Shown: one piece after another, positions 24,638 through 46,957 of the stretch
Layout of the letters: each line of letters begins with the position of its first letter
Position numbering within the stretch: the first letter of the stretch is position 1
Origin: Candidatus Bathyarchaeia archaeon
GTDB taxonomy: Archaea; Thermoproteota; Bathyarchaeia; 40CM-2-53-6
DNA length: 64,000 nucleotides
NCBI GenBank assembly: GCA_049513715.1
Contig: JBEKVV010000004.1
Span: 103,633 to 167,632 of the forward strand
Direction of reading: 5' to 3'
Position numbers and translations under genes: made by a program
Notes under the pieces: generated by a model
The model's database searches: none
What the model saw: only the letters and a program-made list of their open reading frames with translations
What the model was told of the DNA's origin: nothing

Positions 24638-24813
24638 TGGTGCGGGGAAGGGGATTCGAACCCCTGAAGGCCTACGCGGATTCTACTGTTCTGATTCCTC
24701 TACGCCACAGGATCCCTTCTCTCCAGGCCGAAACGAAACGCTTTCGATCTTAAGTGTGGCCCCACCCAGAACCGGGCGGACCTGCCCCTTTGGCCTGGCT
24801 CGGGTACCCCCGC
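24638..24813 (-). tRNA. tRNA-Leu(UAA), class II, with introns at 30/31 and 37/38 plus a 28-nt variable-arm insertion
   Basis: 5' GCGGGGG-UA-CCCGAGCCAGGCCAAAGGG D-arm. Anticodon stem CAGG+A / UCCUG after removing 24756-24780. Loop CUUAAG+A after removing 24714-24748. T-arm AGGGG-UUCGAAU-CCCCU. Acceptor UCCCCGC-A-CCA. Confidence 0.75.
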
Positions 24814-24948: not shown

Positions 24949-25092
24949 GGGCCCGTAGCTCAGGTTGGATAGAGCGGCAGACCCCGCACACGCTGCGGGT
25001 GCACCTTTGCCGAACCCCCTAAGGAACACCGGAAAAAGCTGTAGAACCCTTAGGTGCAGAAGTCCGGGGTTCAAATCCCCGCGGGCCCGCCA
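24949..25092 (+). tRNA. tRNA with Lys/Arg-like body and multiple insertions; anticodon unresolved
   Basis: GGGCCCG-UA-GCUC-AGGUUGGAUA-GAGC-G. T-arm CGGGG-UUCAAAU-CCCCG. Acceptor CGGGCCC-G-CCA. A clean BHB (CUGU/GCAG helix, bulges AGA and AAG, ACC/GGU hairpin) removes 25045-25061 and gives variable loop AGGUC. The anticodon exon could not be placed. Confidence 0.6.
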
Positions 25093-31120: not shown

Positions 31121-31699
31121 CTAGACATGTAGTGGGGTCAGCGTATAGTATACTATATCCGTGCGTCGGTCAACCACCGCTAGGATCAGTTCCTTCTTCT
31201 CCCGTTCTGCGATCGTCAGAAGCTTTTCCAGTTTCCGCAGGCTCGCCTCTCCGCCCTCGTAAACGATGGATATGAGTCGCCTGAGTGGACCTTTTCCGTA
31301 AATATCGAAATCAAAGTTTCCACCGGATTCTCTGACAATATAACCCCTATCTCTCAGATCCCGATAGACTAAGTATTTGATCCAGATTTCGGGTTTGACG
31401 AGGGAGAATTTCCTGACGAGGTCTCGCAAGTTAACTTCTTTTTCGTCCTTCTTTGTAGAGACGTGGATTTTCTGTTTCTCGATGAGGTAGAAGGACTCGT
31501 AGGGTGTGAAGTAGAGTCTGTCCTTCTTGAGGTCTCCGAACCCCCTGTCCCGGAGTTCCATGAGGTCAGATTTGTAGGGTATGTACACACCGTGCGCATC
31601 AGAGAATGCGCTCCAAGGGGTAAACTGAGGCTTCTCCTCCGCTTGAATAGGAGGTTTGGCACTCTGCGGAGGCGGCGCGCTATTCTCCATGAAGACCAC
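31121..31699 (-). CDS. endA: tRNA-intron (splicing) endonuclease family protein, possibly the non-catalytic/structural subunit
   Basis: YLVYRDLRDRGYIVRESGGNFDFDIYGKG...KKELILAVVDRRTDIVYYTL matches the EndA C-terminal domain. No His is visible where the catalytic His normally follows the Tyr. Confidence 0.7.
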   Translation of the reverse strand: MVFMENSAPPPQSAKPPIQAEEKPQFTPWSAFSDAHGVYIPYKSDLMELRDRGFGDLKKDRLYFTPYESFYLIEKQKIHVSTKKDEKEVNLRDLVRKFSLVKPEIWIKYLVYRDLRDRGYIVRESGGNFDFDIYGKGPLRRLISIVYEGGEASLRKLEKLLTIAEREKKELILAVVDRRTDIVYYTLTPLHV

Positions 31700-34350: not shown

Positions 34351-34465
34351 GGGCCCGTAGTCGAGCCAGGATTAAGACACAGCGACTCCAATGAGTCGTG
34401 TAGGCCTTCGGTGCAAATGCGGGGAAAGCCTGGGATCCGGGGTTCGAATCCCCGCGGGCCCGCCA
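34351..34465 (+). tRNA. tRNA-Arg(UCG) with canonical 15-nt intron and a 21-nt insertion after the D-arm
   Basis: Anticodon arm UAGGC-CUUCGG[34412-34426]A-GCCUG with a textbook BHB (CUUC/GGGG helix, bulges GGU and AAA, GCA/UGC hairpin). Variable loop GGAUC. T-arm CGGGG-UUCGAAU-CCCCG. Acceptor GGGCCCG/CGGGCCC-G-CCA. The extra segment is 34380-34400. Confidence 0.8.
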
Positions 34466-36911: not shown

Positions 36912-36992
36912 CTATCCCATTGTCCGGCTGAAAGTACTCCATAGATTTAACGAAGCCGTATTGCAAATGCGAAAAGGCTGCGGGATTCTCTG

Positions 36993-37003
36993 AAAGCTTA
37001 TAG
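36993..37003 (+). promoter_or_regulatory. TATA-like box upstream of tRNA-Tyr
   Basis: aaagcttatag lies about 30 nt upstream of tRNA position 1 (37031). Confidence 0.3.
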
Positions 37004-37030: not shown

Positions 37031-37205
37031 CCCGCGGTAGCTCAGCCTGGTAGAGCTTCCGAGTCGCTCTAACTAGGAGTGACGGAGACGCTGTAGGTGT
37101 GCGCCCAAGGCGCGGCCATGTCAGCCTACTAGGCTAACAACCGAAACCGGACTGTCGCTGGTTCAAAGCAGGTGTTACCCTGTGAAAATCCGGCCCGCGG
37201 GACCA
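37031..37205 (+). tRNA. tRNA-Tyr(GUA) with three BHB introns (30/31, 37/38, 59/60)
   Basis: C1-G72 acceptor CCCGCGG/CCGCGGG-A-CCA. D-arm GCUC-AGCCUGGUA-GAGC. Exon 1 ends UCCG (37058-37061). Exon 2 is G-CUGUAG (37090-37096). A38-CCGGA-CUGUC follows. T-arm GCUGG-UUCAAA[37168-37188]U-CCGGC. As I recall it, the 3' half closely resembles the M. jannaschii tRNA-Tyr. Confidence 0.85.
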
Positions 37206-40918: not shown

Positions 40919-41024
40919 GCCCTGGTCGTTCAGTGGTCTAGGATGACGGCCTGTCACGTCGTCGACGCGGGTTCGAATCCCGCCCAAAGGAGCGGAAAGA
41001 ATCTTCTCCTGGCGAGGGGCGCCA
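40919..41024 (+). tRNA. tRNA-Asp(GUC) with a 30-nt intron in the 3' strand of the acceptor stem (68/69)
   Basis: GCCCUGG-UC-GUUC...GGAU-G-ACGGC-CUGUCAC-GUCGU-CGAC-GCGGG-UUCGAAU-CCCGC-CCA[40987-41016]GGGC-G-CCA. BHB: CGCC/GGCG helix, bulges CAA and AGG, AGGAG/CUCCU hairpin. Confidence 0.8.
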
Positions 41025-42908: not shown

Positions 42909-43289
42909 ATGGCAAATGAGTCGCATAAAAGCGACGATCCAGAAGTTGACATTCAGCAGGTAATCTGCAAATTAGTGCTAGCTCTGAAGCGATTGGAGGG
43001 CTACAATCCGGTTCTAGATCTGCCGCTCATTGAGGAGGTAGCCCGCAGCGCGGCTTTCATCAGACTCGGCGAAAGCTTCCTGATCAATCCGAAATGCTCT
43101 CCGGGAACGTACGCCAGTATTTCTGATGGGATAGCGAAGCATGCGTCCAGAATGCGCCAAGCCATGAAGGAGCTGGCAGCTACGAGAGCGGAGCGAATGC
43201 GCTACCAAACTGCAACGGCACAAGCCGCGCAGGTCAAAGAGATCGTGGATAAGATCATTCACCAGGAGAATGAGCATGACAGCGCGTGA
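42909..43289 (+). CDS. Hypothetical protein (possible small terminase/packaging accessory)
   Basis: 126 aa, helical C-terminus. The 3' end overlaps the TerL start by 20 nt, suggesting an operon. Confidence 0.4.
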   Translation: MANESHKSDDPEVDIQQVICKLVLALKRLEGYNPVLDLPLIEEVARSAAFIRLGESFLINPKCSPGTYASISDGIAKHASRMRQAMKELAATRAERMRYQTATAQAAQVKEIVDKIIHQENEHDSA

Positions 43290-44613
43290 AAGATTCCGAG
43301 AAGAGGTAAGTAAGGCTAAGTGGAATGCGGCCTACTTTGCCGAAATCTTCCTCTCTCTGAGACCGTTTCCATACCAAGTCGACTTTCTCAGGGACGATGG
43401 AAAAGAGATTGCCGCGGCATGCGGTCGCCAGGTTGGAAAGACCACCCTAGCCGCAATCAAGGGTTTGCATTTTGCCTTCTTCCATCCAGACGTGACTGTG
43501 CTGATCATCAGCTCCACGCTCCGCCAAAGCATGATCCTGTTCGCAAAGATCCGCTCAATGACAGAGTCGAACCCAATTCTCCGAATGAAAGTGAAGAACT
43601 CGAACCGGACAACAATTGAATTCGATCACGGCAGCCGAATCGTGGCGTTGCCCTGCGGACCGACCGGTTACAGCCTACGAGGCCACACCGCGGACATGAT
43701 CATCCTAGATGAAGCGAACTTCGTGCCGGAAGAGATTGTGGACGGCGTCGTAAGGCCCATGCTCATCGCCAAACCCAACTCAAGACTCATCATGGTCTCC
43801 ACACCTTGGACTCGAAACCATCCATTCTACCGAGCCATCTCTGAGAAGGGTCGAGGATTTCATGTCTACAGATGGCCGACAAGCCTCAGCCCACTAGTCT
43901 CCGCGGAGAAGCTTCAAGCCGACCGCAACGCCCTCGACGCTCTCACATTCAGAAGAGAGTACGAAGCCCAGTTCGTCGAAGAAAACGATTCCTATTTCCC
44001 AACCCACCTCATCTCGCAGTGCGTAGACGGAAGCTATGAACTCCTGGAGGATCAGGACGTTCTCCAAACCGAACACAAAGGCGTCTTTCACCTGGGCGTG
44101 GATTTTGGGAAGCGGGTTGACCACAGTGTCCTAGCTGTTCTTGAGGAATCCGCAGGCCGACTTCAACGCTTAGTCTATCTAAAACAGTTCCCGCTGCAAA
44201 CAAATTACGCAACGGTAATCGGCTGGATTCGCCGCCTCAACGAGGGTTTCGGATTCGAGAGTGTAACCCTAGACCAGACAGGAGTCGGAGAAGCACCAGT
44301 CGAAGACGTGAAAACCTTCCTTCCAAACGCTGAAGGCGTCATTCTGACGAACAAGATGAAACTGGATATTCTATCGAACCTGCAACTTCTCATGCAACAT
44401 GAGAGGTTGAAGATACCGCTCGAAAAGACCATAATCACCCAGATCAACGAGCAGCAATACGAGATCAATAAGACAGGGGAACTAATCTTCTCACACCCAA
44501 CCCGATCACACGACGACAAACTCTGGGCTTTGGTTTTTTCAGCTTGGGGAGCCAGAAAACCACCTCGCCCAAGCTTCTTGCCAATAACCCGCTCCTTTGG
44601 ACTAAGACCCTAA
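43270..44613 (+). CDS. terL: Terminase large subunit-like ATPase/nuclease (TerL)
   Basis: Walker A CGRQVGKTT, Walker B ADMIILDEA, and RNase-H-like nuclease acidic residues (GVDFGKRVDHS, LDQTGVGEA, SHDDKLWAL). Confidence 0.8.
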   Translation: MSMTARERFREEVSKAKWNAAYFAEIFLSLRPFPYQVDFLRDDGKEIAAACGRQVGKTTLAAIKGLHFAFFHPDVTVLIISSTLRQSMILFAKIRSMTESNPILRMKVKNSNRTTIEFDHGSRIVALPCGPTGYSLRGHTADMIILDEANFVPEEIVDGVVRPMLIAKPNSRLIMVSTPWTRNHPFYRAISEKGRGFHVYRWPTSLSPLVSAEKLQADRNALDALTFRREYEAQFVEENDSYFPTHLISQCVDGSYELLEDQDVLQTEHKGVFHLGVDFGKRVDHSVLAVLEESAGRLQRLVYLKQFPLQTNYATVIGWIRRLNEGFGFESVTLDQTGVGEAPVEDVKTFLPNAEGVILTNKMKLDILSNLQLLMQHERLKIPLEKTIITQINEQQYEINKTGELIFSHPTRSHDDKLWALVFSAWGARKPPRPSFLPITRSFGLRP

Positions 44614-44747
44614 CTGATCGAAATGATTGCCGGAACATGTAACGACTCAGCCGGTGACCACTTTGGGTCTATGGGCAATCTTGTCAGGATCGCTGATTCT
44701 CGGGTCTTGGAAAAGTTTAGGTAGTCTCACCCCTTGCTCGTGTGGTA

Positions 44748-44942
44748 GGGCCCGTAGCTCAGTCAGATCCACGCAAAATGGATCCTAGATAGGTAGAGCA
44801 TCGGAAACACCGTGCAATTCCACGGGTGTTGGTGATGCTTTTACCCTGGGTTTCTGGAACCTTAGGGAAGCCACCCGAAAAGACACCGCTTAACCGCGGT
44901 CTTGGGGAAGGGTCCCGGGTTCAAATCCCGGCGGGCCCGCCA
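44748..44942 (+). tRNA. tRNA-Lys(UUU) with four insertions (D-loop, 30/31, 37/38, 43/44)
   Basis: GGGCCCG-UA-GCUC-AGUC[about 25 nt]UAGGUA-GAGC-A-UCGG[44805-44836]G-CUUUUA[44844-44872]A-CCCGA[44879-44909]GGGUC-CCGGG-UUCAAAU-CCCGG-CGGGCCC-G-CCA. The last three have clear BHBs. Confidence 0.85.
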
Positions 44943-45137
44943 CCTTCACTGAGTGGCTGTACCATTTTCTTGATGCCAGCAGGACAAAGTCCTCCCGCGA
45001 GTAGCCACCATCAGTCTTACGTGAGCATATGCCAGGATTTTTTCTGGTTTGGCGTTTGGAGCGAGCTGTCGTCAAAGACACCGCTCCCTTGACCACACTA
45101 GAACAATTCCTCAGCCCGACTTGTATTCTGCAGCGCA

Positions 45138-45160
45138 GGGCCCGTAGTTTAGTCAAGGTG
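45138..45160 (+). other. Isolated tRNA 5'-end fragment (similar to the tRNA-Lys 5' end)
   Basis: GGGCCCGUAGUUUAGUCAAGGUG compares with GGGCCCGUAGCUCAGUCAG of the gene at 44748. No matching 3' half follows. Confidence 0.45.
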
Positions 45161-45283
45161 AGTCCGACTGTTTTCGTACACTTTTAGTGGGTGAGTGGCG
45201 TGACTGAGCCTAGGCAACGCGGAAGGCTATCTCAGCGCAAAGTCTCTTTAGTAAATCCAAAAGCTAGTCGTTTCGGGTCTATT

Positions 45284-45630
45284 ATGAGCCCGCAATTCAT
45301 CCGCTCCAAAAGAGCTTCCAATCTTAGCAAATCCGTGGAGCTTGAGGCGTTCCTTGGTTCCTGCAGAAACGATTGGCTAAAAGAGAAAGCCGAAGAGGCA
45401 TTCACAGAAATAAAAGCTCATTATGAAATTGGCGACAAGGTCCAGAAGGACAGATGGCCGCGCTATTACGTCTTGACATGGGGATCAACAATCTGTATGT
45501 TCATAAGCTTGGGCGCGACTGGCGCTTAACCTACTCGCTCGTAGCAGATGAAGTAGGAATCATGGCCTTCTGCCTTGAAATCCTGACACACAAGCAATAT
45601 AACAAAAGGTTTGGTTACGGGAACACCTAG
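45284..45630 (+). pseudogene. RelE/ParE-superfamily toxin gene interrupted by a frameshift near 45470
   Basis: Frame 2 gives ...KAEEAFTEIKAHYEIGDKVQKDRWPRYYV. Frame 1 continues ...DMGINNLYVHKLGRDWRLTYSLVADEVGIMAFCLEILTHKQYNKRFGYGNT*. Confidence 0.55.
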
Positions 45631-45887
45631 CGCACGCGGATGCTTTTCGCCAATGCCCGCTTTAACGTGGCGTTGTCAGCGAAGACCCAGACGATTTCAC
45701 GATCATTCAAGATTATTTTGTTGCTTGCTAGCAAGTACTCTATGACACGGTTGAAAGTTTGGTATTGTACCTTGCGCGGGAGGCTTTGCCACAGGGCCTT
45801 CTTGGTCGGATAGTTTTTCGCTTTGTGTATGGCTTCTTCCACCATCAGTATGGTTCCTAGTGTGGGTTCGTGGGCGTTTTTCACCAT
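45627..45887 (-). CDS. Small winged-helix-like hypothetical protein
   Basis: 86 aa, preceded by an AT-rich promoter-like tract at 45940-45990. Confidence 0.45.
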   Translation of the reverse strand: MVKNAHEPTLGTILMVEEAIHKAKNYPTKKALWQSLPRKVQYQTFNRVIEYLLASNKIILNDREIVWVFADNATLKRALAKSIRVR

Positions 45888-46068
45888 CAGACATTTCCTC
45901 TCCCTTAGAGTTACTACTACAGTAGACTACTATGGTAATGTGCTATTTATACATAATTGTATATTATACAAGTATGTATAATGCTTTAATTGTCGGAAAA
46001 CGCTATGCCCGCCACATCCATCAAGGGTTGTCATGAAGATTTTGCTCAAGATCCCTGATCTCATGATG

Positions 46069-46095
46069 TTGGTGGGTTCAAATCCCACCGGCCCA
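46069..46095 (+). repeat. tRNA T-arm/3'-end fragment (copy a of a 21-nt direct repeat)
   Basis: ttggtgggttcaaatcccacc (46069-46089) followed by ggcccaacca. The identical 21-mer recurs at 46741-46761. Confidence 0.7.
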
Positions 46096-46147
46096 ACCAT
46101 CTCGTCTGTGTAATGACCGTTCTTTCACGAGAGTATAATTGAGTCCA

Positions 46148-46411
46148 TCATTTGTAGGCCCTTCCTCTGAACTCGACAGCGAGAACGGCAATCGTTTTGG
46201 ATTCCCAGTCGACCTCATACTCGATGCGGATTTCTCCTATTCGTATTCTGTAGGTGTCATGCATCCCAGCCAGTTTCCTGACATCGTATTCAGGAACTGG
46301 CGCTGGATTCTGACTCAAAGCCTCTAAAACCAGCAGGACTCCACGCGCGTAGTGGCTAGGTATACGCCTAAGCGACTTCCTAGCACGGTTTGAAATAATG
46401 ATTTCGAACAG
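46148..46411 (-). CDS. relE: RelE/ParE family toxin (no ATG/GTG/TTG start; absent from ORF track)
   Basis: (L)FEIIISNRARKSLRRIPSHYARGVLLVLEALSQNPAPVPEYDVRKLAGMHDTYRIRIGEIRIEYEVDWESKTIAVLAVEFRGRAYK*. It begins 5 nt downstream of the antitoxin stop codon. Confidence 0.65.
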   Translation of the reverse strand: MFEIIISNRARKSLRRIPSHYARGVLLVLEALSQNPAPVPEYDVRKLAGMHDTYRIRIGEIRIEYEVDWESKTIAVLAVEFRGRAYK

Positions 46412-46416
46412 GAGAG

Positions 46417-46620
46417 CTACGCACCGAGTTCCTTTCGGAGCTGGCCTAAGGTGACGTAGCGGCCCTTCTCAACCTCTAGCCGACCCTGTCGGATCAGTTT
46501 TCTTTCTCTGGCAGTCACTCGCTCTTCCGGAAGTAGGGCCGCCCTTAAGCGAAGAAGCTCTATCTTCACGTCGTCAAGCTTCGTGATTACTTTACGCAAT
46601 TCAGTCTTGGTTACTGCCAT
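46417..46620 (-). CDS. Antitoxin partner of the RelE/ParE toxin
   Basis: MAVTKTELRKVITKLDDVKIELLRLRAALLPEERVTARERKLIRQGRLEVEKGRYVTLGQLRKELGA. Small and helical, directly upstream of the toxin. Confidence 0.55.
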   Translation of the reverse strand: MAVTKTELRKVITKLDDVKIELLRLRAALLPEERVTARERKLIRQGRLEVEKGRYVTLGQLRKELGA

Positions 46621-46740
46621 TAGATTATCCCGCACATCTGCAGTCTAACCAACTAGTAAAAGAATCTGGCGTCTGGCAGAGCCTTATCTCCTTCCTCCTA
46701 CGGGGTGGGTATTCTACTTAGAAACGTGATTAGTCCCACA

Positions 46741-46761
46741 ATTGGTGGGTTCAAATCCCAC
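46741..46761 (+). repeat. tRNA T-arm fragment (copy b of the 21-nt direct repeat)
   Basis: ttggtgggttcaaatcccacc is identical to 46069-46089. The downstream acceptor-like sequence differs (ctgcccca). Confidence 0.7.
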
Positions 46762-46843
46762 CTGCCCCAGCACTTTCCTGTTTACCCGTTGCCGTCGAGC
46801 ATTGCACCTACTCCATTGGAGGTCGGCATGTGATGTGCTGGTC

Positions 46844-46957
46844 GGTGATGCTTTTACCTTTTCGGGAAACGTAAACCCAGGGAAGCCACCCGAAAAGAAA
46901 CCGCTTAACCGCGGTCTTGGGGAAGGGTCCCGGGTTCAAACCCCGGCGGGCCCGCCA
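46844..46957 (+). pseudogene. Partial second copy of tRNA-Lys(UUU) (from the 30/31 intron 3' end through CCA)
   Basis: GGUGAUG-CUUUUA-CC is identical to 44831-44845. The last 77 nt (46881-46957) match 44866-44942 with 2 mismatches. The interior of the 37/38 intron is unrelated. No acceptor 5' strand lies upstream. Confidence 0.75.

Follow-up and report, generated by a model that had tools for sequence, protein, structure and literature searches.

The 64,000-nt stretch of DNA analyzed here (the window), from a Candidatus Bathyarchaeia archaeon (contig JBEKVV010000004.1), harbors between positions 44748 and 44942 a sequence that reads as a tRNA-Lys(UUU) only once four segments are removed from it. 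This locus raises the question of whether so heavily interrupted a sequence is a functional tRNA gene. One of its insertions lies at tRNA position 30/31, which is interrupted in other tRNA genes of the window as well, raising the further question of whether introns at this position are copies of a mobile family or mark a preferred site. The initial annotation had referred to multi-intron tRNAs of Thermoproteales-type archaea; we rejected a Thermoproteales host, the organism being a Bathyarchaeia MAG. The relatives of a window protein are Bathyarchaeia/Bathyarchaeota MAGs from peat and soil, along with two bacterial-named bins that are probably mis-binned.

Gene model of tRNA-Lys(UUU)

Neither ARAGORN nor Rfam returned a tRNA match for the raw, unspliced tRNA-Lys locus; on the raw window their sole match was the front of a tRNA-Asp gene, and ARAGORN in single-intron mode gave a wrong label to most genes. 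We used our own BHB scanner, in which exon nucleotides -5 to -2 of the 5′ cut pair with intron nucleotides -5 to -2 of the 3′ cut, and which further demands 3-nt bulges containing the cuts and an inner helix (h′). It was combined with a solver, purpose-written for this analysis, that seeks the set of introns whose excision yields a cloverleaf. Scanner and solver returned every coordinate and helix that the initial annotation had given. The solver optimum scored 70.5, compared to 55-80 for the accepted genes, and decoy starts or random acceptor-like anchors scored at most 49. Relaxed BHB-like candidates arise by chance at about one per nucleotide (250 in 215 nt).

The gene (44748-44942, plus strand) comprises five exons, four introns and an encoded CCA. 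Exon 1 (44748-44764, 17 nt) covers tRNA positions 1-17 and is followed by a 26-nt D-loop intron at 17/17a (44765-44790), which forms a BHB with the central helix UCAG/CUAG (3/4 pairs), bulges UCA and AUA, and a 6-bp inner helix GAUCCA/UGGAUC. Exon 2 (44791-44804, 14 nt, positions 17a-30) precedes the 32-nt intron at 30/31 (44805-44836), a strict BHB with the central helix CAUC/GGUG (4/4), bulges GGA and AUG, and a 6-bp inner helix AACACC/GGUGUU. Exon 3 (44837-44843) is a 7-nt micro-exon consisting of G31 and CUUUUA (32-37, including the anticodon UUU), and was correctly described in the initial annotation. The canonical 37/38 intron (44844-44872, 29 nt) is again a strict BHB, with the central helix CUUU/GAAG (4/4), bulges UAC and CCA, and a 6-bp inner helix CCUGGG/CUUAGG. 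It is followed by exon 4 (44873-44878, 6 nt), which contains A38 and CCCGA (39-43), and by the 31-nt intron at 43/44 (44879-44909), a BHB with the bulges GAA and AAG, a 5-bp inner helix AAGAC/GUCUU and a central helix ACCC/GGGG that is 3/4 paired, its outer end being an A.G mismatch. Exon 5 (44910-44942, 33 nt) covers positions 44-73 and the CCA. Exons 2, 4 and 5 were placed by solver and alignment alike.

All four Lys introns thus fit a BHB with a 4-bp central helix and two 3-nt bulges, two of them with 4/4 and two with 3/4 central pairs, and their inner helices of 6, 6, 6 and 5 bp exceed the 2 bp that a flanking helix must at least have. The three BHBs at 30/31, 37/38 and 43/44 had been called clean in the initial annotation; the D-loop segment, which it had left unresolved, is a BHB too. 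The exon lengths imply a second micro-exon, of 6 nt (A38 to A43), besides the 7-nt one, which had not been stressed before. Once the four introns are removed, a 74-nt cloverleaf plus CCA is left, to which ARAGORN assigns the label tRNA-Lys(ttt). The five exons are colinear and all lie inside 195 nt, so that the gene is neither split nor permuted. The Lys precursor folds better than shuffled sequences (z = -3.7), and the splice junctions and the order of the cuts are predictions of this model. Among the 35 tRNA genes solved in the genome, this is the single one with a UUU anticodon.

Conservation of the Lys gene in the genus and order

When the locus was compared by BLAST with 60 relatives, the complete interrupted Lys gene was recovered from congeneric species, with an identity of 77-82%. 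The contamination of this MAG is listed as 8.8%; however, the same Lys gene is present in 20 other genomes of the genus, and the predicted mature tRNA-Lys is identical or nearly so in all 21 species (this genome and its 20 congeners). All four intron sites are found in 12 of the 21 species, this genome included, and three sites, without the D-loop intron, in the remaining nine; one of the 12 (G017) was counted from our reading of the alignment, the solver having mis-joined it. In a MAFFT alignment of the 21 species, the exon columns are essentially invariant (those of exon 1 at every position bar 16, those of the 7-nt micro-exon throughout) and the intron loops diverge freely. The gap that marks the missing D-loop intron in nine species falls precisely between AGUC and AGGUA, the predicted junction, and the 30/31 intron is kept in 21 of 21 species with lengths of 21-32 nt.

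The same alignment was used to assess the predicted helices. In the eight BHB helices, 92.6% of the cells are paired, compared to 34-51% when the partners are slid by 1-3 columns, and the observed values, which include double-sided changes in eight BHB pairs, were matched by none of 500 shuffles; as the relatives are not independent samples, these figures lend support but should not be read as probabilities. Together with the low decoy scores, this covariation indicates that the Lys model does not arise by chance. In the 30/31 intron, 100% of the inner-helix cells are paired, and compensatory changes occur in four of the five pairs; the inner helix of the 43/44 intron has two such pairs. The central helix of the D-loop intron, 3/4 in this genome, is 4/4 in most orthologues.

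These results bear on the possibility that mobile elements left behind tRNA debris or a pseudogene here, whose introns would be an over-fitted permissive motif. Mobile-element genes and a partial tRNA copy do flank the locus, and the chance frequency of relaxed BHB candidates is as high as given above. However, the mature sequence is unchanged or almost so across the 21 species although the introns drift, the helices show compensatory changes, and the D-loop intron is lost exactly at the predicted junction. Likewise, the decoy anchors never exceeded a score of 49, and there is no other tRNA-Lys(UUU) among the 35 solved genes. Based on the conserved mature tRNA, the covarying helices and the precise loss of the D-loop intron, we rejected the pseudogene reading, which we consider extremely improbable.

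Outside the genus, some of the Lys sites are also interrupted in two genomes from a different family of the order (17/17a, 37/38 and 43/44 in one; 30/31 and 37/38 in the other), which indicates that the sites are old. Judged by these alignments, the Lys introns appear to be old and vertically inherited, with three fixed in the genus and the D-loop intron polymorphic.

tRNA introns across the genome and the recurrent 30/31 site

In this 99.4%-complete genome, Rfam finds 18 tRNAs above threshold, of roughly 46 genes. Across 61 genomes of the order, it gives 3-27 clean tRNA matches each, even at 95-100% completeness, a rough proxy suggesting that tRNA interruption may be order-wide. With so few genes seen by standard tools here and in the order, tRNA counts used for MAG quality are badly understated for this lineage, which is widespread in soil. 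Our catalogue, which is incomplete, comprises 35 solved genes with 78 introns, or 2.23 per gene: one gene has no intron, seven have one, 15 have two, seven have three, and five have four (Lys UUU, Leu CAG, Pro CGG, Pro GGG and the initiator Met, with comparative support for Lys alone). About ten expected tRNAs, whose intron motifs are weaker than our criteria, fall outside the catalogue; they include His, Phe, Trp, Gln CUG, Glu CUC, Thr CGU, Ala GGC, Arg CCU, Leu UAG and Ser GGA.

The most frequent intron site is 37/38, with 21 calls and two further '38/39' calls that are probably 37/38 in another register. Position 30/31 comes second (11 calls, nine of them solid), followed by 59/60 with six calls, and 29/30 and 45/46 with five each. 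If the 55 non-canonical introns were spread uniformly, 11 calls at 30/31 would have a Poisson P of ~5e-10, and the recurrence is thus stronger than the initial annotation, which had noted it in three window genes, had stated. An anticodon micro-exon of 7-8 nt, flanked by a 29/30 or 30/31 intron and a 37/38 or '38/39' intron, is found in 13 genes. The 30/31 introns previously described in tRNA-Tyr and tRNA-Leu were reproduced exactly. In tRNA-Tyr(GUA), on the plus strand, the 28-nt 30/31 intron (37062-37089; central helix 4/4, inner helix 8 bp) is separated, in the solver model, from a 37/38 intron (37097-37145) by a micro-exon of 7 nt (37090-37096). In tRNA-Leu(UAA), on the minus strand, the solver model likewise has a 25-nt 30/31 intron (24756-24780; central helix 3/4, inner helix 8 bp), after which come a micro-exon of 7 nt and an intron at 37/38 (24714-24748).

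The six tRNA genes of the window carry 3+2+2+3+1+4 = 15 introns, in agreement with the earlier count of about 15 insertions, the model of the gene at 24949-25089 being doubtful. This gene (plus strand) has good acceptor, D and T arms and an unconvincing anticodon arm; its best model is a GCA tRNA interrupted at 30/31 and 45/46, in which the stem is weak and position 37 is a pyrimidine. A better Cys(GCA) gene is present on contig C1. The Arg UCU gene has a solver score of 55 and an odd 33/34 intron. Since relaxed motif classes are frequent by chance, weak-BHB calls such as those in Arg UCU and in the gene at 24949-25089 are uncertain. Acceptable BHBs were found for a 21-nt insertion in tRNA-Arg(UCG) (34383-34403; central helix 4/4, inner helix 5 bp) and for an insertion in the variable arm of tRNA-Leu(UAA) (24672-24699; central helix 4/4, inner helix 3 bp). 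In tRNA-Asp(GUC) (40919-41021, plus strand), a strict 30-nt BHB intron (40987-41016) lies at position 68/69, within the 3′ acceptor strand, and both ARAGORN and Rfam mistake the first 73 nt of the gene for a 'complete' tRNA. On contig C1, an initiator-type tRNA-Met (A1:U72; 172732-172880, minus strand) has four predicted introns at 29/30, 37/38, 47/48 and 59/60. Two further C1 genes were modeled by eye and are outside the 35-gene count: an elongator Met (289579-289685) with a 30/31 and a variable-loop intron, and Thr UGU (291177-291292) with D-stem and 37/38 introns.

In archaea, a maximum of three introns per gene has been given in reviews and in the tRNAscan-SE 2.0 paper, and the prior record is held by Pyrobaculum calidifontis, with 71 introns in 46 genes, or 1.54 per gene (PMC8450103, PMC4033280). 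The four-intron genes surpass the limit stated in the tRNAscan-SE 2.0 paper. The Thermoproteales (Pyrobaculum, Thermofilum, Caldivirga; Sugahara 2007/2008, Fujishima 2010) are like this genome in having BHB introns at the canonical and many non-canonical sites, several per gene, a two-subunit endonuclease with a Crenarchaea-specific loop, and many genes that tRNA finders overlook. They differ in their lower intron numbers (at most three per gene and 1.54 on average, compared to four and at least 2.2 here), in having intron sequence families across tRNA types, which this Bathyarchaeia genome lacks, and in being hyperthermophilic, whereas the present host is a mesophilic soil/peat Bathyarchaeia.

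In wetland Asgard genomes, 92-95% of the tRNA genes are interrupted (PMC11291895); the average is 2.2 intervening sequences per gene, and a single gene can contain as many as five (bioRxiv 10.64898/2026.10.13.758758). These Asgard genomes (Atabeyarchaeia/Freyarchaeia; PMC11291895, bioRxiv 10.64898/2026.10.13.758758) share with ours a density of ~2.2 introns per gene, mostly at non-canonical, BHB-capable sites, as well as the many introns missed by standard annotation, the lack of cross-type intron families, and the wetland/soil habitat. They belong, however, to another phylum, Bathyarchaeia being part of Thermoproteota, and the Asgard preprint makes no mention of Bathyarchaeia. By sequence, the predicted intron pattern here resembles that of Asgard, not that of Thermoproteales, and Bathyarchaeia would rank with two Asgard families in having the most heavily interrupted sets of tRNA genes known. 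A search of the literature outside subscription journals found no report on tRNA introns in Bathyarchaeia.

The initial annotation had suggested either a mobile intron family or an insertion hotspot at 30/31. In Thermoproteales, where copies of mobile introns are proposed to have transposed among tRNA genes, 28% of introns belong to cross-type sequence families (preprint, bioRxiv 10.64898/2026.10.13.758758). A similar origin of the 30/31 introns would fit the occupation of this one site in at least nine different tRNA genes, and there is a slight excess of moderately similar intron pairs genome-wide, with eight pairs at a local score of at least 20 (best score 25) versus 0.8 expected from shuffles. 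However, none of the top-scoring pairs joins two 30/31 introns, and these range from 16 to 58 nt in length and have unrelated sequences. Across the incomplete catalogue they form no sequence family; the sole feature that they share is the splice context, with the 5′ cut usually falling between RG and A, and the 3′ cut preceded by AA, AC or AU. By the same kind of measure that gave 28% for Thermoproteales, no pair of introns from different tRNA types reaches 80% global identity among the solved genes, the best being a 75% pair at unrelated positions. In addition, the 3′ end of each intron must complement exon positions 25-28 of its own gene, which also argues against copies of one element. We therefore rejected a mobile 30/31 family, a very unlikely explanation, based on the unrelated sequences and the lack of cross-type pairs at 80% or above. 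From these comparisons we conclude that 30/31 is a positional hotspot and not the mark of a mobile intron family, so that of the two alternatives suggested earlier only the hotspot was upheld.

Integrating elements, splicing endonuclease and predicted processing

A partial second copy of tRNA-Lys, which BLAST also detects, lies at 46843-46957 (plus strand). It starts within the 30/31 intron, at the 3′ end of the latter, and continues to the CCA, with the identity beginning at GGUGAUG. Compared to the Lys gene, the interior of its 37/38 intron is different and its 43/44 intron is nearly identical. The 3′ part of the Lys gene and this partial copy make up an att-like direct repeat that frames a 1.9-kb insert. 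The segment between them (44943-46957) contains only short ORFs and has the appearance of a small integrated element, or of what is left of one; no integrase was identified in the segment or at the locus. Upstream, an ORF at 43270-44613 (plus strand) matches Terminase_6N and Terminase_6C, the terminase large subunit, and ends 135 nt before tRNA-Lys, which suggests that a virus-derived region adjoins the gene. Two congeneric genomes, G020 and G018, also contain partial Lys copies with about the same start. The partial copies in the three genomes, together with the nearby terminase gene, indicate that integrating elements attach at the intron-bearing 3′ part of the Lys gene. This shows that the Lys introns are no bar to integration, and integration is a possible route, as far as these sequences can tell, for intron exchange at the DNA level.

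A mobile-element model of tRNA gene disruption has reportedly been put forward in a study of Caldiarchaeum subterraneum. The present locus is similar to it in having a partial tRNA copy and an inserted segment beside an interrupted tRNA gene. It is unlike it in that the Lys gene is colinear and intact, the introns are older than the insertion, and there is no split tRNA. The genus as a whole offers a series (three fixed introns, a polymorphic one, and partial copies left by insertions) that amounts to a natural experiment on intron gain, loss and kept spliceability.

If such exchange were general, introns at 29-31 would arise or be swapped in DNA as integrating elements replace the 3′ part of a tRNA gene from the anticodon arm onward, with a BHB-capable junction persisting. 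The partial Lys copy fits this, since its start falls within the 30/31 intron, at the 3′ end, and its 37/38 and 43/44 introns are versions of its own, and so do the similar starts in G020 and G018 and the terminase gene directly upstream. However, the Lys 30/31 intron predates the insertion, as it is shared by all 21 species and also occurs in another family; no integrase is seen here, a single locus cannot account for 11 genes, and a similar test in Asgard gave no general link to mobile elements (bioRxiv 10.64898/2026.10.13.758758). We regard this origin as unlikely. A broader proposal, by which soil and peat Bathyarchaeia would form an undescribed, independent centre of tRNA-intron accumulation with 29-31 as its preferred site, is in our opinion unlikely as well. 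In this proposal, the site preference may stem from integrating elements that use an intron-bearing tRNA 3′ part, beginning in the anticodon arm, for attachment; by replacing the resident 3′ part, they would generate or swap introns at the junction.

The genome contains two PF01974 (EndA) genes. The product of the gene on contig C1 matches the catalytic subunit of Aeropyrum pernix (3P1Z_B, E = 2.5e-41), in an alignment that spans the Crenarchaea-specific loop, where K44 is retained and a K takes the place of R46. Experiments have shown that this loop and its lysine enable the enzyme to cut relaxed motifs as well as non-canonical positions (PMC3241643), and the genome thus encodes, by sequence, a crenarchaeal-type, alpha-like EndA with the loop lysine, as expected of a host enzyme able to cut non-canonical positions. 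The second gene (31121-31699, minus strand) encodes a divergent subunit with a PF01974 match, for which PDB EndA chains gave a best E of 1e-18. Its product is probably the structural beta subunit, and we infer assembly of the two as an (alpha-beta)2 heterotetramer.

Taken with the conservation and hotspot results, it is very probable that the locus is a functional, and apparently the only, tRNA-Lys(UUU) gene of this Bathyarchaeia genome, with four BHB introns that are cut by the two-subunit endonuclease and have been inherited vertically since long ago, and with 30/31 as a site of repeated intron gain or retention in the lineage, not one filled by copies of a single element. The gene would be transcribed as a precursor of ~195 nt, in which each intervening segment and its neighbouring exon would form a BHB, consisting of a central helix between two 3-nt bulges and an intron-internal helix. 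The precursor would lack an anticodon stem, as the 5′ strand would be tied up by the 30/31 intron and the 3′ strand by the 43/44 intron. An (alpha-beta)2-type endonuclease would cleave both bulges wherever the BHB sits in the tRNA, and a ligase would then unite the five exons of 17, 14, 7, 6 and 33 nt, of which the 6- and 7-nt ones would be demanding substrates for both enzymes. The sequences directly show the gene model and its BHB geometry, the covariation and conservation, the presence or loss of the D-loop intron, and the endonuclease genes; splicing of Lys in vivo, the order of the cuts and the reason for the preference for 30/31 are what we infer from them.

An A/T-rich, promoter-like box, gaaaagtttaggtag, was read by eye at 44710-44724 (plus strand), 24-38 nt upstream of tRNA-Lys. 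Similar A/T-rich boxes, aaagtttag at this site and aaagcttata upstream of tRNA-Tyr (36992-37003), lie ~25-40 nt ahead of the two genes, and are probably BRE/TATA promoters, as yet putative, for single-gene transcription.
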